DNA of 64,000 nucleotides, taken from Candidatus Binataceae bacterium. Its GTDB lineage: Bacteria > Desulfobacterota > Binatia > Binatales > Binataceae. The notes beneath the pieces were generated by a model, which worked only from the letters and a program-made list of their open reading frames with translations, was not told where the DNA came from and ran no database searches. The stretch covers positions 11,422-75,421 of the forward strand of contig DASXMJ010000023.1 in NCBI GenBank assembly GCA_036495685.1. The letters run 5' to 3'. Below are positions 39,366-49,128 of this stretch, in pieces. The stretch's first letter is position 1. Every line of letters begins with the position of its first letter. The translations under genes and the position numbers were made by a program.

Positions 39366-39605
39366 TCAGACGCGGCGCACCAGGTGGGTAATCCAGACCA
39401 GGATGACGGCACCAATCGTCGCTACCACCAGGGAACCGATCATCCCCTCGGGCCCTGCCACTCTCAGTTGCGCGAAGATCCATCCCCCGATGATTCCGCC
39501 GATGAGGCCGAGGATCAGGTCCCCAATCAACCCGTAGCCGGCGCCCTGCATCAGCTTCCCCGCAAGCCAGCCGGCAAGAATTCCGATTATGATTGTCCCG
39601 ATCAT
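39366..39605 (-). CDS. GlsB/YeaQ/YmgE family stress-response membrane protein
   Basis: 79 aa, Gly-rich TM helices (IIGILAGWLAGKLM...GLIGGIIGGWIFAQL). Confidence 0.8.
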   Translation of the reverse strand: MIGTIIIGILAGWLAGKLMQGAGYGLIGDLILGLIGGIIGGWIFAQLRVAGPEGMIGSLVVATIGAVILVWITHLVRRV

Positions 39606-39626: not shown

Positions 39627-40286
39627 CTAGCAACCGGGCGCATGATGCACGCCCGTGCGCTGGAACGCCAGCGTCTGTAATTCCTCGGCCAGGGTCAGCG
39701 TGCGTGCGTGGGCCGCACGCGCCATCTGCTGGGACTCCTCGTCGACGGCCAGACGTGCCAGAAAGTGCCGACCCAGCTGATGATGATGTTGCTCGTCGGG
39801 CTGGATCACGCCGCGATACAGCAAGGAGGTTGCGATGTCTCCCGCCCGCTCGCAGAGCTCGATGAACTGCACGTTCTTGACCAGCGCGATAGCTTCGCGC
39901 GTGAACTGCCCTGCGGCAACGCGCTCCACGTCGTTCTCCAAGGTGCTCAGAAACTTGAACAGGGGGCTGTATCCCTGGGCGAGAGGGTCGAATCCCTCGA
40001 GGTCGTCGCCCAGACTGTGGAGTCGCTCGACGATTAGTCGGTAGTGGCGGGCCTCGTCGCCGGCCTGCCGAGCGAGCGCGAGCTTCAGCTCCGCGCCGCG
40101 CGCTGAGGGCATCCACAATGCGGCAATCTCACTCGCTTCGAGTTCGTTTTTCAGCGCAACTCGCAGCAGATTGCGCGGACTCAAGTCACCGCGCGCTTCC
40201 ACCCCGAGCGCCTGAGCGGGAGCCAGTCGTTTCAAGATTGATTCGTTTTCGGACGCGAGTTCCGCGATAAAAGCTACAGCGTCCAT
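39627..40286 (-). CDS. Ferritin-like diiron-carboxylate family protein
   Basis: Two E...ExxH sets (ELEASE...GDEARHYRL and EAIALV...PDEQHHHQL) on a four-helix-bundle-sized protein. Confidence 0.55.
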   Translation of the reverse strand: MDAVAFIAELASENESILKRLAPAQALGVEARGDLSPRNLLRVALKNELEASEIAALWMPSARGAELKLALARQAGDEARHYRLIVERLHSLGDDLEGFDPLAQGYSPLFKFLSTLENDVERVAAGQFTREAIALVKNVQFIELCERAGDIATSLLYRGVIQPDEQHHHQLGRHFLARLAVDEESQQMARAAHARTLTLAEELQTLAFQRTGVHHAPGC

Positions 40287-40312
40287 GGTTTGCAGACCCT
40301 ACACTCGCGCGC

Positions 40313-40432
40313 CTACTTCTTCTGTTCCATCGGTACGCCGCAGCACTTGAGCGCGCCGGTCCCACCCTTGGTGACAATTACCTGCGATCCGCATTTGCCG
40401 CAGATATAAACCTTACCCAGCTGATTGGCCAT
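40313..40432 (-). CDS. Desulforedoxin-like mini-protein (39 aa, C-x2-C-G...C-C-G Fe(Cys)4 motif)
   Basis: Not in ORF track (below the 60-aa cutoff). Translation: MANQLGKVYICGKCGSQVIVTKGGTGALKCCGVPMEQKK. RBS GGGAGAT 5 nt upstream. It lies 26 nt upstream of the ferritin-like gene. Confidence 0.6.
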   Translation of the reverse strand: MANQLGKVYICGKCGSQVIVTKGGTGALKCCGVPMEQKK

Positions 40433-40465
40433 CTCCCAGTCCGTTCCTCTTGTGAAATTGATTGC

Positions 40466-41221
40466 TCACGCGCCGCGGAACAGCGGCTTGCGCTTCTCCA
40501 GAAACGCACGCACTCCCTCGGCGCGATCGGCAGTCGTTTGTAGCAAGGCGTAGAGATCTTCCTCAAGCCTGACGCCCTGCTCCAATGTCATATCATACCC
40601 TTTTATCACCGCATCTTTGACCAGTCGCGCGGCCAGCGGCGCGCGGCTCAAGATCGCCTCGACAACCGCACCCCCGGTGCGAGCCAGATCGCGCTCATTT
40701 TTCGCAAGATAGGCTACCAGTCCGATTCGATGCGCCTCGGTTCCATCGATAGCCGCGCCGGTGAGGATCATGCGCAGTGCGTGCGCCGGTCCCACCAGCC
40801 TGGGAAGCCGCTGGGTTCCGCCGAACCGCGGCAAACCGCCCCGCCCTGCCTGGGTGAGTGCGAATCGCGCGGATGCCAGCGCGACGCGGATGTCGGCGGC
40901 CATCGCCAATTCCAGCCCTTCGTCGGTGGCGTCTCCATTGACGATCGCGACGGTGGGCTTCGAGATCGCTGCGAGCGACTCGACCAGTGCAGGGTTCACC
41001 TCCGGGGCGAATCCGCTGCAGAAAGCTTTGCCGGTGCCGGTGATCGCGAGCATCCGCGCGGAATCATCATCTTCGACTTCTTCGAAGAGTTCGATGAGCC
41101 GCGCCGCCGCTTCCGCGCCGAGTTTCGCGCTCCGCGCCAAACCGACCAGCCGCGCGGTAACACATCCTCCTGCGGCGCTGATCTCGATGGGCCGCCGAGC
41201 CTCCGGGTGATGTCCCTGCAA
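40466..41221 (-). CDS. Enoyl-CoA hydratase/isomerase (crotonase) family protein
   Basis: AITGTGKAFCSGFA...GLELAMAADIRV...GTQRLPRLVG is the crotonase fold. Confidence 0.8.
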   Translation of the reverse strand: MQGHHPEARRPIEISAAGGCVTARLVGLARSAKLGAEAAARLIELFEEVEDDDSARMLAITGTGKAFCSGFAPEVNPALVESLAAISKPTVAIVNGDATDEGLELAMAADIRVALASARFALTQAGRGGLPRFGGTQRLPRLVGPAHALRMILTGAAIDGTEAHRIGLVAYLAKNERDLARTGGAVVEAILSRAPLAARLVKDAVIKGYDMTLEQGVRLEEDLYALLQTTADRAEGVRAFLEKRKPLFRGA

Positions 41222-41265: not shown

Positions 41266-42801
41266 CTATTCCGCCCTCAGGTCCTTGCGCAGAATTTTAC
41301 CCAGCTGGTTCTTGGGTAGCGCGTCGAGAAACGCTATCTTCTCGGGCCGCTTGAAGCTGGCCAGTCGCGACCTGCAGAACTCGGTCAATTCCGGTTCGCT
41401 GGCACTGGCGCCTTTGCGCAACACCACAAATGCTTTCACGGTCTGGCCCCACTCCTCCGACGGAACTCCCACAACCGCGACCTCATCGACTGCAGGATGG
41501 CTCATCAGGACGGTTTCGATTTCTGCCGGAGCGATGTTCTCGCCGCCGCGAATGATCATGTCGTCCTTGCGCCCGGCGAAGAACACATACCCATCTTCGT
41601 CCAGCCATCCCAGGTCTCCGGTCGCACGCCAACCGTCAGGCAGCGCGGCGTCATCGGCCCGGCCCGCGTATCCCTTCATGATCCGCGGTGTGCGAATGAT
41701 TATTTCACCGACCTGTCCGGCGGGAAGCACCTTGCCCTCCTCGTCGCGGACCCTCACTTCGACGTCGGGTAAGGGTTTGCCGATCGAGTTGAGGCGCTTG
41801 AGCTTGAGCTCGACCTCCGCGGGGGAACCCTCGAGACGATGGTCATCCGGACCCAGCACCGTAAGTGACGACGTGGTCTCGGTCTGCCCGTATGCGTTTA
41901 CGAATCCCACCGTCTTCGGAAATGCATCGATCGCGCGCCGGATAACCTGGATCGGCATCGCAGCGCCGCCGTAAGCCAGGTTTGTCAGGGTAGATAAATC
42001 GGTCTTCGAGAAGGACGGCTCATCGAGCAGCTGTTTCATCATGGTGGGGACCACGAAAGCGTGCGTCACCTTCTCGGCCGCAACCAGCTCGAGCCAGGTT
42101 TTGGCATCGAATTGCTGCATCACGATCATTTTGCGACCCGTCCAAATATTGGTCATGTACGCGGTGGTTCCGGCGATGTGGTAAAACGGCACGCACACCA
42201 GTGCGATCCCCCGGTCGCTCCCATCGGCCATCTCCACGTTCGCGGTGACATAGGCAGTGAAGTCGCGGAACGAAAGCATGACGCCCTTGGGCAGCGAGGT
42301 GGTGCCGCTGGTGTACATCAAGATGGAGGTATCTTCGTCTTCCACCTCGGCCTCGGTCTCGTCGGGCTCCGCTTTCGCTGTCAAATCGCCCAGCCGCGGG
42401 ATTCCGCCCCTGCCCTCGCCGATCGCGAGCAAGGAGTGCACCTTCAAGCGAGGGCGCATCCGCTCGATCAAATCGAAATAGCGATCGCCGACCAGCAGCA
42501 CACGTGTTTCGGCGGCGTTGATCATGTACTCGAGCTCATTTTCCTTGGCGCGGTAGTTGAGCGGAAGGAATGTCAGTCCCGCCTTCGCCGCCGCATAGTA
42601 GCTGGCGACGTAACAATCGGAGTTGGTATCAAGCGTGGCGACCACATCGTGGCTCTTCAGTCCGGCCTGCTTGAAAACGGCTGCCAGACGCGCGACCTGA
42701 TCGGCGAGCTGCGCATAGTTCAGCCGTTGCCTCCCAAAAACCAGAATCTCCTGATCCGGCACAATGCTGGACGGGATGGTTACGAAATTGACAGTGTTCA
42801 A
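41266..42801 (-). CDS. AMP-forming acyl-CoA synthetase (fatty-acid--CoA ligase)
   Basis: AMP-binding motifs MYTSGTTSLPKGV, YGQTE, GWRATGDLG...GRKDDMIIRGGENI. Confidence 0.88.
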   Translation of the reverse strand: MNTVNFVTIPSSIVPDQEILVFGRQRLNYAQLADQVARLAAVFKQAGLKSHDVVATLDTNSDCYVASYYAAAKAGLTFLPLNYRAKENELEYMINAAETRVLLVGDRYFDLIERMRPRLKVHSLLAIGEGRGGIPRLGDLTAKAEPDETEAEVEDEDTSILMYTSGTTSLPKGVMLSFRDFTAYVTANVEMADGSDRGIALVCVPFYHIAGTTAYMTNIWTGRKMIVMQQFDAKTWLELVAAEKVTHAFVVPTMMKQLLDEPSFSKTDLSTLTNLAYGGAAMPIQVIRRAIDAFPKTVGFVNAYGQTETTSSLTVLGPDDHRLEGSPAEVELKLKRLNSIGKPLPDVEVRVRDEEGKVLPAGQVGEIIIRTPRIMKGYAGRADDAALPDGWRATGDLGWLDEDGYVFFAGRKDDMIIRGGENIAPAEIETVLMSHPAVDEVAVVGVPSEEWGQTVKAFVVLRKGASASEPELTEFCRSRLASFKRPEKIAFLDALPKNQLGKILRKDLRAE

Positions 42802-42810
42802 GGAGCCTGT

Positions 42811-43617
42811 TTACCTCCTGGGTGCCCCGGGCCTTCTTGGGTGCCGGAGCCCGCGCGTCCCGCGGTCGTGACGATGCTCATGCCCGCTCAGCATCAAGAG
42901 GCGATAGGCGAGACGCCGTTCCAAGGAAAGCCCTTCTCCGAGTGGCAACTCGAGCCCGCCCCACACCGCAAGCTTGATCAGCGCGGTATTTTCGCGGGGC
43001 AGTTGGGCGAACCAATGAGCCAGTTCCAGCGCGCGGCTCTCGAGCTTCGCCACCGAGACGACTTCGGCGACCAAACCTATAAGCAATGCGTCTTGCGCGT
43101 CAATCCAGCGGCCCGAAACCGCCAGGTCCAGCGCGCGGCCGAGCCCAAGGCGGCGTGAGGCCGTCTGGGTGCCGGCGACACCGGGGATCATTCCGACCCC
43201 GGTCTCGGGCAGGCAAATCCGGGTATCTTCCGCGGCGATCGCGATGTCACACAGCAGCGCCATCTCAAGTCCGCCGCCCACGGTGAACCCGTGAACCGCC
43301 GCTATGGTTGCGACCGGTAGCGCTTTCAGTCGACCCCACACGTCGCGGCGGAAGCGAACCCAGCGCGCGACCACCGGCGACGGCGCCGTGCCGAACTCGT
43401 GCAAATCACCCCCGGTCGAGAATGCCGGGCCGGCGCCGGTCAGTACCATCGCGCGGACTTCGACGTCATCATGTACCGCGCTCAAAGCACCGAACAGAGC
43501 ATCGCGCATGGCGACGTTGTAGGCGTTCAGCTGGTCGGGCCGATTCAGCGTCACCCACGCGACGGCGCCGCGTTTTTCGTAGAGGACCGCGTCAGGCCGG
43601 TCCACGCTCTCGCTCAT
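42811..43617 (-). CDS. Enoyl-CoA hydratase/isomerase family protein
   Basis: Crotonase fold (VAWVTLNRPDQLNAY...AMVLTGAGPAFSTGGDL). Start set at MSESVD (ATGA overlap with the upstream ACAD stop); the Arg-rich extension is rejected. Confidence 0.8.
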   Translation of the reverse strand: MSESVDRPDAVLYEKRGAVAWVTLNRPDQLNAYNVAMRDALFGALSAVHDDVEVRAMVLTGAGPAFSTGGDLHEFGTAPSPVVARWVRFRRDVWGRLKALPVATIAAVHGFTVGGGLEMALLCDIAIAAEDTRICLPETGVGMIPGVAGTQTASRRLGLGRALDLAVSGRWIDAQDALLIGLVAEVVSVAKLESRALELAHWFAQLPRENTALIKLAVWGGLELPLGEGLSLERRLAYRLLMLSGHEHRHDRGTRGLRHPRRPGAPRR

Positions 43618-44723
43618 AGTTCCAGAATGTTCGCCAGCTGCAGGCGATGCTCGCTCGGATCGCCGAACAGTATCGAGCTTGCGCGCGCACGTTTGAAATA
43701 CAGATGCGCGGGATGCTCCCAGGTAAAGCCCATGCCTCCGTGAATCTGGATATTCTCGGCCGCGGCGTGAAAGTACGATTCTGAACAATACGACTTGGCC
43801 AGGTGCGCAGCTTCAAACCCATCTTCGCCGTCGGCTATAGCGAACGCGGCGTGATAGGCGGCGGAACGTGCGAACTCCGTTTCCACCAACATATCGGCGC
43901 ATTTGTGCTTGATCGCCTGAAACGAGCCGATCGGCCGGCCGAACTGCAGACGGGTCTTCGCGTACTCGGTCGACATTTCAAGGCAGCGCTGCGCGCCGCC
44001 TACTTGCTCGGCTGCCAGCATCGTCACGCCAAGCGCCATCACCTGTTTGAGCGCTCCGGTGGCCTCGCCCGCCGAAATGCGCGTTGCGGGGGTGCTCGAG
44101 AAATTCAGTCGCGCCATCTTGCGGGTCAAATCGAGCGTCGGCAGCGCGTGCCGCTCCAACCCCGACGCGTTCGCTTCGACCTGAAACAATGCCAAGCCGT
44201 CGTCGGCCTTGGCCGCGACGATCAACGCATCCGCGAGGTGCCCGTCTAGAACGTAGTCCTTCACTCCGCTCAGCTTCCACTCGGACCCCACGCGGGTGGC
44301 ACGCATCGCGACGGAGGCGAGATCCCATTTCCCGGCCGCTTCGGTCACCGCGACGGTCGCGATCGACTTGCCCGATGCGATGGCGGGCAGGAGTTTCCTT
44401 TGCGCCGCTTCATCGGCACCGTGTAGTAGAGCGCCCGTTGCCAGGACCGCACTTGCCAGATAGGGTCCGCAGAACAACACCCGTCCCATCTCCTCCATCG
44501 CGATCGCCAGCTCGACCGGGCCCAGGCCCGCACCGCCATGGCGCTCCGGCACCATCAGGCCAAGCAGCGACAATTCCGATGCCATGCGTTCCCAGGTCCT
44601 GCGATCGTAGCCCGGCTCGGTCTCCATCAGGGTGCGGACCGTTGCCTCAGACGATTCGTTCTCCATGAATCGGCGCACCGTCTGCCGAAGTTCCTCGTGC
44701 TCGTGCGTGAAAGCGAAATCCAT
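43614..44723 (-). CDS. Acyl-CoA dehydrogenase family protein (possible non-catalytic/partner subunit)
   Basis: ACAD N, middle and C domains. The usual C-terminal catalytic-base motif Y-E-G is replaced by ...ILFGDPSEH, so Glu at the canonical position looks absent (alignment by eye). Confidence 0.75.
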   Translation of the reverse strand: MDFAFTHEHEELRQTVRRFMENESSEATVRTLMETEPGYDRRTWERMASELSLLGLMVPERHGGAGLGPVELAIAMEEMGRVLFCGPYLASAVLATGALLHGADEAAQRKLLPAIASGKSIATVAVTEAAGKWDLASVAMRATRVGSEWKLSGVKDYVLDGHLADALIVAAKADDGLALFQVEANASGLERHALPTLDLTRKMARLNFSSTPATRISAGEATGALKQVMALGVTMLAAEQVGGAQRCLEMSTEYAKTRLQFGRPIGSFQAIKHKCADMLVETEFARSAAYHAAFAIADGEDGFEAAHLAKSYCSESYFHAAAENIQIHGGMGFTWEHPAHLYFKRARASSILFGDPSEHRLQLANILEL

Positions 44724-44765: not shown

Positions 44766-45995
44766 TCAGGCGCTGCGCGGAATCTGTTTCCACGGAACGT
44801 CCTTGTCGGAGCGCGGTTCGCCGGGCAAACCCAGCACGCGCTCGCCAAGGATGTTGCGCATGACTTCGGAGGTCCCGCCTTCAATCGAGTTGGCGCGCGC
44901 CCGCAGGAACTGGTACTTGGTCAGCGAGTTACGCCCTTCGCGCGCGCGCGAGGTGGGCCGGCGCCGTTTATAGCCGGGCTCGTATATCAGCGAGTCGGCT
45001 CCCATCACGTCCATCGCGCATTCCCAGATGCGCTTGTTGAGCTCAGCCTGGGCAAGTTTGACGACCGAGCCCTCCGGCCCTGGGTTGCCCGCTTTGCGCG
45101 CGGCCTTCCCGCGCTGGGTGGTCATCCGTAACAGTTCGGCTTCGATGTACAGCTTGGTAATTCGATCGCGCAGTAAAATTTCCGCGTCCGGCGAGAACTG
45201 TCCCTGTTCGCGTGACTTCCACAAATTTATCAATACGCCGATCGAGCCGGCGCCGCGGCGGGTCGGGCCGCCGCCGCCAATCGCGGTTCGTTCGTTCATC
45301 AGGGTGGTGATAGCTACCTTCCATCCTTCGCCTTCACGGCCCATCAGCCGATCCGCCGGAATCTTCACGTCGGTGAGAAACACTTCGTTGAACTCGGCTT
45401 CTCCGGTTATTTGATGGAGCGGCCGCACCTCGACGCCGGGACTTTGCATATCGAGCAGGAAGTACGACATCCCCGCGTGCTTGGGAGCATCGGGATTGGT
45501 GCGCGCCAGCAACATGCCCCATTTCGAGACGTGGGCGAGGCTGGTCCAAACCTTCTGGCCATTCACCGTCCAGTAGTCACCCTCGCGGGTCGCGCGAGTC
45601 GCCAGCCCCGCGACGTCGGAACCCGAGCCGGGCTCGCTGAAAAGCTGGCACCAGATGTCTTCGCCGGTGAAGATGCGGCGCAGGAGTGTTTTCCTCATCC
45701 AATCGGTACCGTGGGTGAGCACAGTCGGCGCGCCCATCCCAATGCCGATCGCGTTGATCATCATGTCATCGTAGTGGGTCTTGGCGTGCTTGCTGAGCTC
45801 GTCAGCAATGACGGCCTGCATGCCCGGGCTGACTCCCAAACCTCCGAATCCCTCGGGAAAATGGACCCACGCCAGACCGTAATCGTACAGCTTGCCGCGG
45901 AAGGTAAATTGGTCGACCTTGTCGGGATGCGCCTCTTCCAGAAGCGCGCGTACCCGCTTGCGCAAATCCTCTTCGCTGATCTCACGCTGGGCCAT
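44766..45995 (-). CDS. Acyl-CoA dehydrogenase
   Basis: Full ACAD with ...ANSIEGGTSEVMRNILG, i.e. catalytic Glu present in the IEGGTSE context. Strong RBS AAGGAG 7 nt upstream. Confidence 0.85.
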   Translation of the reverse strand: MAQREISEEDLRKRVRALLEEAHPDKVDQFTFRGKLYDYGLAWVHFPEGFGGLGVSPGMQAVIADELSKHAKTHYDDMMINAIGIGMGAPTVLTHGTDWMRKTLLRRIFTGEDIWCQLFSEPGSGSDVAGLATRATREGDYWTVNGQKVWTSLAHVSKWGMLLARTNPDAPKHAGMSYFLLDMQSPGVEVRPLHQITGEAEFNEVFLTDVKIPADRLMGREGEGWKVAITTLMNERTAIGGGGPTRRGAGSIGVLINLWKSREQGQFSPDAEILLRDRITKLYIEAELLRMTTQRGKAARKAGNPGPEGSVVKLAQAELNKRIWECAMDVMGADSLIYEPGYKRRRPTSRAREGRNSLTKYQFLRARANSIEGGTSEVMRNILGERVLGLPGEPRSDKDVPWKQIPRSA

Positions 45996-46271: not shown

Positions 46272-47888
46272 TCAAACTGAATGCAGCTCGGCACTGTCGC
46301 TGTAAGCAACTGCCGGCCGGCCGCGCTCGTACACCACGCGCCCGCCGATCAACGTCATATCCACCGGCAGGCTGAGGAGTTCGTCGGGGTTCAGGGTCGC
46401 GGGGCTTCGCGGCAGTACGATGAGGTCGGCCAGCTTGTCCGATGCGATTTCGCCGGCATCGATACGCGCAAGGCGCGCCGCATCGCGTGTGAACATCGCA
46501 AAGGCTTCACTCGATTCCAGACATTCCTCGGGTGCGAGTACCTGCCCGTCTACCGTCGACCGCGAAATGGCCGCCGCGATTGCCGCCAGCGGTCGCGCGG
46601 GTGTTACCGGTGCATCGGTTGCCCCGACCAGCTCAATTCCGGCCGCCAGCAGGCTGCGCGCCCGATAGAGATGCGGAACTAGACCGGGCTCTTCGAGGTA
46701 CTTGGGCCCGCGAAAATGCAGAAACCCCGGGTTGCTGACTACCCAGGCACCGCTAGCCGCGATTCTCGCGATCAGGTCCGGCGAGATCGTGCCGCCGTGT
46801 TCGATGCGGCAGAGGGGAAGCGGCTTGTCGCTCGCAAACTGCCGACGGGCGACTTCGATCGCATCGAGCGCCTGCTCGAGTTCCTCTATTTCGGTGGTGT
46901 GATAGGCGCAATCTAGGCCGTTTCCTAGTCCAATCCGGGTGCACCGCGCCATCCCACCCTCGTTGCCGCCGCGGGCGGGCATGAACTTGAGTGCAGCAAT
47001 CCGAATGCGTCCCGCCCGGGCGCGTTCCAGGGCCTGGGGCAATGCATCGAGGTACGGTGCTCCGAGCATCACGCCCACCCGCTGGCTTATCGCTCCGCAA
47101 CTGGTCAGTTTGGCGAACAGCGCGATCTCCGCTGGTCCATTGCGAACGGTTGCATCGGTGAATGCAGTCACTCCGGCAGCCGCCAGTTCACGGCTCATCA
47201 CCCCGGCGCGAGATTCAATTTCCGCGGGGGTGACGCGCGGCATTTGCGCGCCGAGCCATTCCTCCATCCCAACGAAGAGGCCAGTTAGGCGTCCGGTCGC
47301 ATCGCGATGCATTTGCGCGCCGTCCGGCGGCCGAAACTTGGGGTTTTCCAGGCCGAGCTGATTGATCGCACGCGTGTTCAGCCACGAACCATGAAGCGTC
47401 TGATGACGCAGCCGCAACGGATTTTTGGGTACCGATTGGTCAAGCTCGTCTCGGGTGGGACCACGCTTTTCGGCGAGCATCGTCTCATCGCAGCCAAAGG
47501 CCCTTAGCCAATTACCCGGGGGTGTCTTACCCGCGGCGGCGCGCAAATCAGCGAGCAAATCACCGAGGGTGCGGCAGCGCCAGACCGAGATGCCCGTTTT
47601 CACCGCGGCGGCCTCGAGAAAATGTATGTGCGAATCAATAAACCCGGGGGCAACCGTTCGCCCCGCAAGCTTCACCAGGTGGGTTCGCGGACCAACGCAC
47701 GCTTTGAGGCGGGCAAAGGGTCCATAGTCGACGATCCGTCCGGCAGCAATCGCGACCGAATCACTGCCGGGCCGGCCAACGACCTCCCCCTCGTGAAGAA
47801 CCAAATCGGCTTTGACCGCTTGATTGACCAACGTTGATTCGCCCGCCCGAAGCGGCGGCAAAATCTCGCCCCGCGCGGGGCTCGTCAT
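46272..47888 (-). CDS. Amidohydrolase family (Amidohydro_3/YtcJ-like metal-dependent hydrolase)
   Basis: GFIDSHIHFLEAA metal-binding HxH and overall size are typical of Amidohydro_3. Its start overlaps the upstream mini-ORF stop. Confidence 0.75.
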   Translation of the reverse strand: MTSPARGEILPPLRAGESTLVNQAVKADLVLHEGEVVGRPGSDSVAIAAGRIVDYGPFARLKACVGPRTHLVKLAGRTVAPGFIDSHIHFLEAAAVKTGISVWRCRTLGDLLADLRAAAGKTPPGNWLRAFGCDETMLAEKRGPTRDELDQSVPKNPLRLRHQTLHGSWLNTRAINQLGLENPKFRPPDGAQMHRDATGRLTGLFVGMEEWLGAQMPRVTPAEIESRAGVMSRELAAAGVTAFTDATVRNGPAEIALFAKLTSCGAISQRVGVMLGAPYLDALPQALERARAGRIRIAALKFMPARGGNEGGMARCTRIGLGNGLDCAYHTTEIEELEQALDAIEVARRQFASDKPLPLCRIEHGGTISPDLIARIAASGAWVVSNPGFLHFRGPKYLEEPGLVPHLYRARSLLAAGIELVGATDAPVTPARPLAAIAAAISRSTVDGQVLAPEECLESSEAFAMFTRDAARLARIDAGEIASDKLADLIVLPRSPATLNPDELLSLPVDMTLIGGRVVYERGRPAVAYSDSAELHSV

Positions 47889-48031
47889 CAGTCCGAGGAA
47901 GGCAGCGGCTTTGCTTCCTTGATCTTCATATCGCCTTCACAACACTCCAGTGCACCGGGACCCGCCTTGTTGCAGAGCACCTCGGTGCCGCAGTTTTCGC
48001 ACAGGTAACGTTTGCCAAGCATGTTTGCCAT
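47888..48031 (-). CDS. Desulforedoxin-like mini-protein paralog (47 aa, C-x2-C-G...C-C-E)
   Basis: Not in ORF track. Translation: MANMLGKRYLCENCGTEVLCNKAGPGALECCEGDMKIKEAKPLPSSD. The stop TGA overlaps the amidohydrolase ATG by 1 nt (TGATG). Confidence 0.55.
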   Translation of the reverse strand: MANMLGKRYLCENCGTEVLCNKAGPGALECCEGDMKIKEAKPLPSSD

Positions 48032-48078: not shown

Positions 48079-49128
48079 TTACTTTAAACCTTGCGGAAAT
48101 GGAATGTCGGAGACCTCGGCTTCGAGCTCTCCTGCGATATCGGCGATCGTGAGTCGGGTCCCTGGCTTCCAGACGCTGTGATTCAGAATCGCAAGACCTA
48201 TGACGCCCAGTCGCGGAGAAACCTCGACACTGCTCAGCCGGCCCACTTCCTTGCCCTCGAACCGCGCCGATACATTCAGCGCCGGCACGCGTTCGCCCTC
48301 GATGACGAGGCCATAGAGCTTTTTTTTGATACCGCCTCGTGCGGTCGCACGCTCGATAGTTTCCTGGCCGACGTAACATCCCTTGTCGACTGAGATGGCG
48401 CGGTTGAGCCGCGCCTCCAAAGCGATGGTCTTGTCTGTGGAGTCAACTCCAACCCTCACGATACCGTTTTCGACCCGCACGATCTCAATGGCATCGGTCC
48501 TGATCCGCCGGAAATCCGCTCCCAGAGACTCGATCGACGAGAGGACATCCGCAACCCTTTGGCGCGGCGCCAGTATCGTCCCGGCGGAGGCCCCGAATCG
48601 TGGCAGGTTGCCAATCGATATCTCACCCGTGCGTGTCCATCTCCATTTTTCCGGCACAACCACATCCTTGGTAGTAGCCCGGATGGCCTCGGCAGCCCGC
48701 GGCCCCTCTACATCGACAACCACCAAATCGGGGCAGTCCTCGAATTCCACATCATCGGCCACCAGCAGCTTCTCCAGATGCTCGCGGGTCTGGCTCCAAG
48801 CCGCTTGGTCGATTTCAATCAGAATGGACGCGTCGTCGATCCACGCGAAAAACTCTGCGATCAGGTGCGCATGTTCGGTGAGGAACAGCGCCGGAACGAT
48901 GGCGCCAGAGCGAGCATTTTTGATGTCGTTGCTGCACATCCCGTGAAGGAACGACACCCGATCATCACCAAACACGCGAATGAGCTTGCGCTCGAAGAGC
49001 GCACATACCCCTGCACCGCGCTGAAGTACGTCGTAGTCAGCGAGTACCTGCGCACGGTTCGCAGAAGCTGGGGCTAAGGTTCTGGTCGTTTCCTGGGTGT
49101 TTTGCACGGTTCCAGAGTGCTGCGCCAA
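48079..49128 (-). CDS. ygfZ: YgfZ/GcvT-like folate-binding protein (Fe-S cluster repair/tRNA-modification associated)
   Basis: GcvT-like aminomethyltransferase folate-binding fold (VSFLHGMCSNDIKN...). Confidence 0.7.
   Translation of the reverse strand: MAQHSGTVQNTQETTRTLAPASANRAQVLADYDVLQRGAGVCALFERKLIRVFGDDRVSFLHGMCSNDIKNARSGAIVPALFLTEHAHLIAEFFAWIDDASILIEIDQAAWSQTREHLEKLLVADDVEFEDCPDLVVVDVEGPRAAEAIRATTKDVVVPEKWRWTRTGEISIGNLPRFGASAGTILAPRQRVADVLSSIESLGADFRRIRTDAIEIVRVENGIVRVGVDSTDKTIALEARLNRAISVDKGCYVGQETIERATARGGIKKKLYGLVIEGERVPALNVSARFEGKEVGRLSSVEVSPRLGVIGLAILNHSVWKPGTRLTIADIAGELEAEVSDIPFPQGLK

Follow-up and report, generated by a model that had tools for sequence, protein, structure and literature searches.

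In a Candidatus Binataceae genome, the minus strand of a 64,000-nt stretch of contig DASXMJ010000023.1 (positions 11,422 to 75,421; hereafter the window) carries two adjoining genes that are the subject of this analysis. Dx1 (40313-40432) is a gene for a desulforedoxin-type Cys4 mini-protein of 39 aa, and FTN (39627-40286, with its ATG at 40286) encodes a ferritin-like, putative di-iron-carboxylate protein of 219 aa that is related to DUF455. The two are separated by a spacer of 26 nt (40287-40312) without overlap and without a predicted terminator. The original prediction had interpreted this arrangement as a split rubrerythrin, i.e. a translationally linked pair in which the Cys4 site and the di-iron site are distributed over two polypeptides. 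Our analysis confirms both genes, but we lean towards a different interpretation, namely that Dx1 and FTN are two separable genes which have been juxtaposed in one lineage.

The product of Dx1, MANQLGKVYICGKCGSQVIVTKGGTGALKCCGVPMEQKK, agrees exactly with the 39-codon peptide that had been proposed. Its cysteines (Cys11, Cys14, Cys30 and Cys31) carry the Cys4 signature of desulforedoxin: the match to the Pfam family Desulfoferrod_N (PF06397) reaches 32.6 bits at a cut-off of 23 (E 6.3e-8), and the top match among solved structures is the desulforedoxin of Desulfovibrio gigas (1DXG/1CFW), whose residues 4-34 align without a gap to residues 6-36 of Dx1 (31 residues), with the four cysteines in register. 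The profile search that had been suggested for the peptide is thus successful for PF06397. With the NCBIfam model desulf_FeS4 (TIGR00319), Dx1 obtains 27 bits and stays under the cut-off of 36.05. All four cysteines are invariant in 26 Dx1 orthologues, and also in 11 aligned sequences of Dx1 and its paralogue Dx2, which is described below. Judged by its sequence, Dx1 is a genuine desulforedoxin-type Cys4 mini-protein gene; by its family, the product is probably a small one-electron carrier, or possibly a Zn or Fe knuckle.

The coding status of Dx1 holds up in the relatives. In 26/26 orthologous loci, the ATG and exactly 39 codons are kept. The sole seeming exception is locus L009, where a metagenome-assembled genome (MAG) from long reads contains a single-base insertion; this frameshift was taken as a sequencing error. 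Among the 26 orthologues, 10, 8 and 35 variable columns fall on codon positions 1, 2 and 3, respectively, and the mean proportions of synonymous (pS) and nonsynonymous (pN) differences are 0.56 and 0.06, which gives a pN/pS of ~0.11. Dx1 is under strong purifying selection, far past chance. The peptide begins with a conserved MANQLGK, and its identity among relatives (82-97%) is higher than that of any adjoining enzyme. A protein-database query of 40 aa in total (the 39 aa plus the in-frame upstream codon, E) finds 87 Dx1 protein clusters in public assemblies with 79-97% identity across most of the peptide, and many of these bear the JGI label 'desulfoferrodoxin-like iron-binding protein'. Hence, the gene was rightly called unannotated with respect to the first track of open reading frames (ORFs), from which it is absent, but it is already gene-called in public data. 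The ribosome-binding site has to be revised: GGGAGAT, the motif originally proposed, abuts or overlaps the ATG and leaves a spacing of zero, whereas a Shine-Dalgarno-like GAGGA is found 12 nt 5' of the ATG (40445-40449, minus strand; GAGGA/AGGAG at 12-13 nt). A purine-rich AGGA/GGAG is conserved 10-16 nt upstream in the orthologues.

FTN possesses the two E...ExxH di-iron motifs that had been ascribed to it, E48...E78xxH81 and E131...E165xxH168, and none of these six residues varies among 84 homologues. The same holds for C145 and for the H214-H215-A-P-G-C219 with which the protein ends. The HHAPGC tail corresponds to the last six codons of the ORF, which together with the stop occupy 39627-39647 on the minus strand; remoter members of the family end with C-x4-C (...CRAPGC or CQAPGC) or with ...PGC. 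Cys145 lies beside the predicted metal site, and the C-terminal tail may act as a swinging thiol or as a metal-binding tail. The FTN polypeptide contains no Cys4 motif. Because a ferritin-like bundle coincides with ligands that are invariant in 84 homologues, FTN is very probably a di-iron-carboxylate protein.

In Pfam, FTN obtains below-threshold ferritin-like matches alone, i.e. DUF455 (PF04305; 29.0 bits, cut-off 34.3), Ferritin and Phenol_Hydrox. Across 17 members of the family, DUF455 is matched in 17, Ferritin in 16, MiaE_2 in 9, Rubrerythrin in 5 and COQ7 in 4, with DUF455 as the top-matching family in all 17. The FTN of the window has no match to Rubrerythrin (PF02915) at E <= 1, and the matches in 5/17 relatives are weak (best E 8.6e-5). 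A literature search on DUF455 brought up mostly animal and plant genetics of no relevance, and no paper that addresses what the family does. Searched exhaustively against 1.84 billion representatives, the FTN profile retrieves 490 family clusters at 50% identity.

In the AlphaFold2 model of FTN (predicted local distance difference test, pLDDT, 89; predicted template modelling score, pTM, 0.85), the helices number eight and the C-terminal tail is disordered. A Foldseek search of this model against the PDB gives nothing strong, and the family profile has a sole significant match among PDB sequences, the bacterioferritin of Desulfovibrio desulfuricans (E 4e-4). The best matches of the core are Dps-like and bacterioferritin-type proteins; rubrerythrin or nigerythrin is not the nearest structural neighbour. 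In the rubrerythrin of D. vulgaris, the third helix supplies an extra carboxylate ligand within an E-x-x-E motif. In the alignment, the third core helix of FTN has an invariant E131 and a near-invariant E121, and no E-x-x-E. Neither the family matches nor the nearest fold make FTN a rubrerythrin. The outcome that would have refuted the original prediction, a helical bundle without metal binding, is not what the analysis indicates; the fold is ferritin-like, but not specifically of the rubrerythrin type.

Two samples of relatives were used for the question of whether the genes form a pair. For the FTN-probed set, a scan with one genome per species yielded 267 relatives, the best 80 of which were analysed. 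The 26 closest loci are Binataceae or MAGs labelled 'delta proteobacterium'; the other 54, together with two loci from a separate lookup, make up the non-Binataceae set (n=56), which spans Methylomirabilota/Rokubacteria, Chloroflexota, Acidobacteriota, Proteobacteria, Verrucomicrobiota, one Binatia and two Thaumarchaeota-labelled MAGs. The Dx1-probed set stems from a metagenome scan with an alignment of Dx1 and Dx2. It yielded 551 relatives, and the best 80 are all of the Dx1 type; 71 of these loci have enough sequence to score the upstream neighbour, and the downstream neighbour was counted in 68. Gene content was determined by tblastn with defined queries and from existing gene calls, and Dx orthologues were located by a relaxed regular expression; a strict Dx pattern overlooked most of them. 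Two further procedures were dropped. When raw ORFs were clustered by all-vs-all BLAST, the long antisense ORFs typical of high-GC DNA swamped the result, with junk in the largest cluster, and a gene caller based on GC content at third codon positions (GC3) chose an antisense ORF over Dx1 and overlooked ECH1, an enoyl-CoA hydratase (ECH) gene of the window.

The result of the neighbourhood survey depends on the gene from which it is viewed. From FTN, co-occurrence is found in all Binataceae loci of the set, where Dx1 lies directly upstream in 26/26 (65-96% identity; L009 included), but it vanishes elsewhere: among the non-Binataceae loci (57-64% identity), a Dx-like ORF within 1.5 kb is present in 0/56. 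From Dx1, an ECH gene is upstream in 69/71 loci (97%), while the next gene downstream is FTN in 11 out of 68, GlsB directly in 32, and another gene in 25, among them ~12 NodB-type deacetylases and one shortened FTN remnant. FTN does not adjoin Dx1 in 84% of the Dx1-probed loci. Dx1 without FTN occurs, for instance, in L084-L088 and L099, and three Dx1 protein clusters come from FTN-less loci with the gene orders ligase-ECH-Dx1-GlsB, YgfZ-like-Dx2-amidohydrolase-ECH-ligase-ECH-Dx1-GlsB-like, and ECH-ligase-ECH-Dx1-OmpA. Probing via only one of the genes inflates the apparent conservation of the pair (25/26 from FTN versus 11/68 from Dx1).

A covariation of the Dx1 sequence with the presence of FTN was considered and rejected: 45 FTN-positive and 63 FTN-negative loci differ at no diagnostic position, and five identical Dx1 peptides are found both with and without FTN. 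No fusion of FTN to a Dx or rubredoxin domain was seen among the top-ranked representatives of the profile search, including all those with a long N-terminal extension. The survey counts, together with the lack of fusion and of coupling, speak against a dedicated two-component or 'split rubrerythrin' pair.

The spacer between the two genes measures 16-181 nt in relatives, and 16-33 nt in 15 out of 25 FTN-probed loci. In L019-L025 (e.g. L024, 7847-8000), it contains a hairpin straight after the Dx1 stop as well as repeated tcatcctgagcgctgcgcgaaggatc units. The unit is duplicated in L024, and the insertions look like repetitive extragenic palindromic (REP) elements or miniature inverted-repeat transposable elements (MITEs). 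In some relatives FTN is lost, shortened or interrupted. L164 retains a C-terminal FTN remnant of 90 aa, ending ...LHAPGC, ~47 nt past Dx1; in L098 (3226-3522), FTN is interrupted after ~86 codons.

Outside Binataceae, FTN belongs to a triad that consists of a peptide deformylase gene (def), a gene for a receiver-like protein of ~115 aa (RL), and FTN itself. Out of the 56 loci, 49 carry def; RL adjoins FTN in 42 and lies nearby in 4 more. Triads were observed in loci L027-L080, e.g. L036 (5895-6898) and L075 (4260-5339). The 40 RL-FTN junctions include 17 overlaps of 4 nt (ATGA/GTGA) and 2 in-frame fusions, and the representative P0208 is also fused. The RL family has 1,308 matches without a Pfam model, and a conserved motif TTHxL..TQPxHxRCxRVVTKE. 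One divergent member matches Response_reg with 30.6 bits; the named database members are all 'hypothetical protein', and the RL profile finds no significant match among PDB sequences. The AlphaFold2 model of RL (pLDDT 93) reaches template modelling (TM) scores of 0.65-0.74 to the receivers DivK, CheY, NtrX and Spo0F; according to this model, RL is a divergent receiver fold. No RL match was found in the window, nor within ~8 kb of any Binataceae FTN.

A third context of FTN was encountered once: in L082 (7254-12327), the gene directly follows DinB_2, and Fur and a KatG-type catalase-peroxidase are encoded <=1.5 kb downstream. This setting hints at a link of FTN to iron or peroxide stress. Two loci of the non-Binataceae set, L028 and L032, belong to MAGs labelled Nitrosotalea/Nitrosocosmicus and contain the bacterial-type triad with 67-100% identity to queries of the Methylomirabilota/Rokubacteria type; they are probably bacterial contigs that were mis-binned into archaeal MAGs.

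Back in the window, all genes of the cluster lie on the minus strand. FTN is followed after 21 nt by a gene for a small membrane protein of the GlsB/YmgE family (Transgly_assoc; 39366-39605; PF04226, 47.4 bits). Because the spacers before and after FTN are only 26 nt and 21 nt long and show no terminator, Dx1, FTN and the GlsB-like gene are most likely co-transcribed. The terminator scan of the Dx1-FTN spacer gave nothing above chance, and promoter/terminator and Rfam scans were uninformative. The sequence confirms that the FTN start codon lies 26 nt past the Dx1 stop; the further claim that the genes are translationally linked is not borne out, as stop and start do not overlap and the distance varies among relatives.

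Upstream of Dx1, at a gap of 33 nt, is the enoyl-CoA hydratase gene ECH2 (40466-41221; PF00378, 135.6 bits), preceded by a gene for an AMP-binding acyl-CoA ligase (41266-42801; PF00501, 276 bits) which passes the NF004837 model for long-chain-fatty-acid--CoA ligase with 480.8 bits at a cut-off of 476. Next come a further hydratase gene, ECH1 (42811-43617; PF00378, 157 bits), and two acyl-CoA dehydrogenase (ACAD) genes (43614-44723 and 44766-45995; Pfam: Acyl-CoA_dh). The PF00378 match of ECH1 starts at residue 72 of a long ORF that was listed to 43788. Translation of ECH1 is likely to begin with the ATG at 43617, overlapping the ACAD stop as ATGA (43614-43617, minus), and the ORF from 43788 is probably an over-extension. 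Among the Binataceae loci, the two ACAD genes were detected only in the closest relatives (L001-L003). Thus, the flanks on both sides of the pair are those that had been claimed. The cluster continues with an Amidohydro_3 amidohydrolase gene (46272-47888; PF07969, 212 bits), Dx2 (47888-48031), and a gene for a YgfZ/CAF17-like Fe-S cluster assembly or insertion factor with a GCV_T fold (48079-49128; PF01571 and PF08669), whose score with CAF17_like_YgfZ (TIGR03317) is 68.3 bits at a cut-off of 49. The complete order is YgfZ-like, Dx2, amidohydrolase, (two ACADs), ECH, ligase, ECH, Dx1, FTN, GlsB.

The position of FTN at the tail of an ECH/acyl-CoA ligase/ECH/ACAD cluster raises the question of whether it is a di-iron oxygenase or desaturase that would act on an acyl-CoA intermediate, with Dx1 as its electron-coupling protein, by analogy with rubredoxin-AlkB or with the phenylacetyl-CoA epoxidase PaaABCDE. 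The labels PaaA-like or COQ7-like, which JGI pipelines at times assign to FTN homologues, would be consistent with such a role. However, most copies of the operon lack FTN, and in other phyla the gene stands beside def and RL, or beside DinB_2, without acyl-CoA genes. Moreover, the core of FTN is closest to Dps-like and bacterioferritin-type proteins, and neither a reductase nor a ferredoxin-NAD(P) reductase is encoded in the acyl-CoA cluster. We regard this function as very improbable, and as the least probable of the explanations weighed here.

The second mini-protein of the cluster, Dx2 (MANMLGKRYLCENCGTEVLCNKAGPGALECCEGDMKIKEAKPLPSSD; 47 aa), is a paralogue of Dx1 with the same Cys pattern, and its PF06397 score of 22.6 bits is marginally below the cut-off of 23. 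The Dx2 stop overlaps the ATG of the amidohydrolase gene (TGATG), and the YgfZ/CAF17-like gene is directly upstream. Most Binataceae loci possess a second Dx-like match a few kb upstream that is 46-59% identical to Dx1, which indicates that the Dx mini-genes belong to the whole cluster and not to FTN. Small Zn-ribbon proteins scaffold thiolase-type complexes. Dx1 and Dx2 might likewise be structural or regulatory subunits of cluster enzymes, e.g. of the hydratases or the amidohydrolase, that serve as Zn or Fe knuckles rather than as redox carriers, and FTN would then be unrelated to them. Both paralogues do lie beside an enzyme gene, Dx2 with its overlap into the amidohydrolase start and Dx1 after ECH2 in 97% of loci. 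The Dx2 tail KEAKPLPSSD, which is identical in 14/14 extracted copies, suggests a docking peptide, and the conservation of Dx1 exceeds that of every adjoining enzyme. Yet the Cys spacing with its CC pair is a specific desulforedoxin signature and not that of a generic zinc ribbon, and we consider a scaffold role highly unlikely.

What is more difficult to dismiss is a pair that is restricted to FTN-bearing Binataceae. Here, Dx1 would reduce the di-iron centre of FTN, the two polypeptides would constitute a peroxidase or oxidase, much as a rubredoxin or Dx domain works with the di-iron domain in rubrerythrin and desulforubrerythrin, and Dx1 would have replaced RL. The genes share a strand and, in most of the FTN-probed loci, a short spacer; Dx1 qualifies as a true Cys4 protein of the Dx type, and the ligand set of FTN is complete. 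Several observations count against our interpretation of mere juxtaposition. Each Binataceae FTN found sits immediately after Dx1, so that an asymmetric need is possible in which FTN needs Dx1 but Dx1 does not need FTN, and the FTN-less Dx1 loci could encode FTN elsewhere in the genome. The missing RL in the Binataceae loci and in the window fits a scenario in which Dx1 has taken over the partner role. Genes related to iron or oxidative stress recur as a theme around the locus, i.e. the YgfZ-like gene in the window, a catalase in L087, and Fur and KatG in L082. Finally, natural fusions of a Dx domain with a di-iron bundle are known: PMC7482061 cites the desulforubrerythrin of Campylobacter jejuni, which unites a Dx domain, a di-iron four-helix bundle and a rubredoxin domain in one chain, and such fusions show that Cys4 and di-iron sites can cooperate as a peroxidase.

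Against the lineage-restricted pair stand the unchanged Dx1 in the 84% of Dx1-probed loci without an adjoining FTN, the occurrence of FTN in many phyla without any Dx, and the absence of a Dx-FTN fusion from the top-ranked representatives, even from all those that are extended at the N-terminus. Spacers extend up to 181 nt and contain repeat insertions. Since a receiver domain does not have the function of a redox carrier, the presumed replacement is ad hoc. Furthermore, the FTN-positive Binataceae loci are fully syntenic; because of this synteny, the adjacency may go back to a single inherited event. We therefore treat the lineage-restricted pair as a tentative alternative that is somewhat unlikely. 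The specific claim that, in FTN-bearing Binataceae, Dx1 took the place of the receiver partner and became the dedicated reductant of a di-iron protein that is DUF455-like and not a rubrerythrin appears unlikely to us. If true, this recruitment would have given rise, by independent evolution, to an analogue of rubrerythrin or desulforubrerythrin that consists of two polypeptides and detoxifies H2O2 or O2 in a soil phylum with aerobic metabolism.

According to the interpretation that we prefer, two separable genes juxtaposed in one lineage, Dx1 would be a conserved gene that closes the acyl-CoA cluster of Binataceae, and FTN would represent an independent, widespread and uncharacterised di-iron family, whose usual partner elsewhere is RL, coupled or fused and downstream of def. 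In part of Binataceae, FTN would have been placed between Dx1 and the GlsB-like gene, where it is probably co-transcribed with them. The data establish the genes themselves, their families, the conserved ligands and the co-occurrence counts, whereas the metals bound, the joint transcript and the redox chemistry are inferred. If the two proteins interact, the likely route would lead from reduced Dx1 to the di-iron site, and the electrons would there reduce H2O2 or O2. Any such transfer between Dx1 and FTN would be an opportunistic use of a nearby carrier and not the activity of a dedicated split rubrerythrin.

A split rubrerythrin, if true, would be a new architecture of peroxide defence; the evidence points instead to a facultative neighbourhood, and the label of a two-component system should not be carried forward for Dx1-FTN. 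Sulfate reducers are the best-known source of desulforedoxin-type mini-proteins. In the present case, two highly conserved Dx paralogues are found within an acyl-CoA/YgfZ cluster in a soil phylum that is uncultured and, judging by its genomes, aerobic in metabolism. FTN, for its part, is a compact and uncharacterised ferritin-like family, and its conserved receiver partner beside def is a better lead than the split rubrerythrin. The main genomics paper on Binatota makes no mention of rubredoxin, rubrerythrin or ferritin.

In comparison with known systems, Dx1 resembles the desulforedoxin of D. gigas in being a stand-alone protein (~36-39 aa) with C-x2-C...C-C in register. Its host, however, is an uncultured soil bacterium of the Binataceae type and not a sulfate reducer. 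Dx1 also differs in its MANQLGK start, in its place at the end of an acyl-CoA operon, in having a paralogue within the same cluster, and in a score below the TIGR00319 cut-off. With rubrerythrin, nigerythrin and desulforubrerythrin, the locus shares the juxtaposition of a Cys4 site with an E/ExxH/E/ExxH bundle; but these are encoded by two genes whose adjacency is facultative, and FTN, unlike rubrerythrin, has extra N- and C-terminal helices, the HHAPGC tail and no rubredoxin domain. Relative to DUF455 (PF04305) and MiaE-like enzymes, the FTN of the window remains under the threshold (29 versus 34.3 bits). Compared with Dps-like and bacterioferritin-type proteins – PA4880, the 'thioferritin' of Bacteroides fragilis (2VZB), and the bacterioferritin of D. 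desulfuricans (1NF4) – it is ~80 residues longer, with extra helices at both ends, and members of its family from other phyla show coupling or fusion with a receiver-like domain. The latter arrangement recalls receiver-effector pairs, for outside Binataceae RL, with its predicted (beta/alpha)5 receiver fold, precedes, overlaps or fuses to FTN; in contrast to such pairs, the RL motif TTHxL..TQPxHxRC is unusual, and the partner is absent from the window. Dx1 is a desulforedoxin whose host and context are unusual, and FTN together with RL constitutes an uncharacterised variant within the ferritin-like superfamily.

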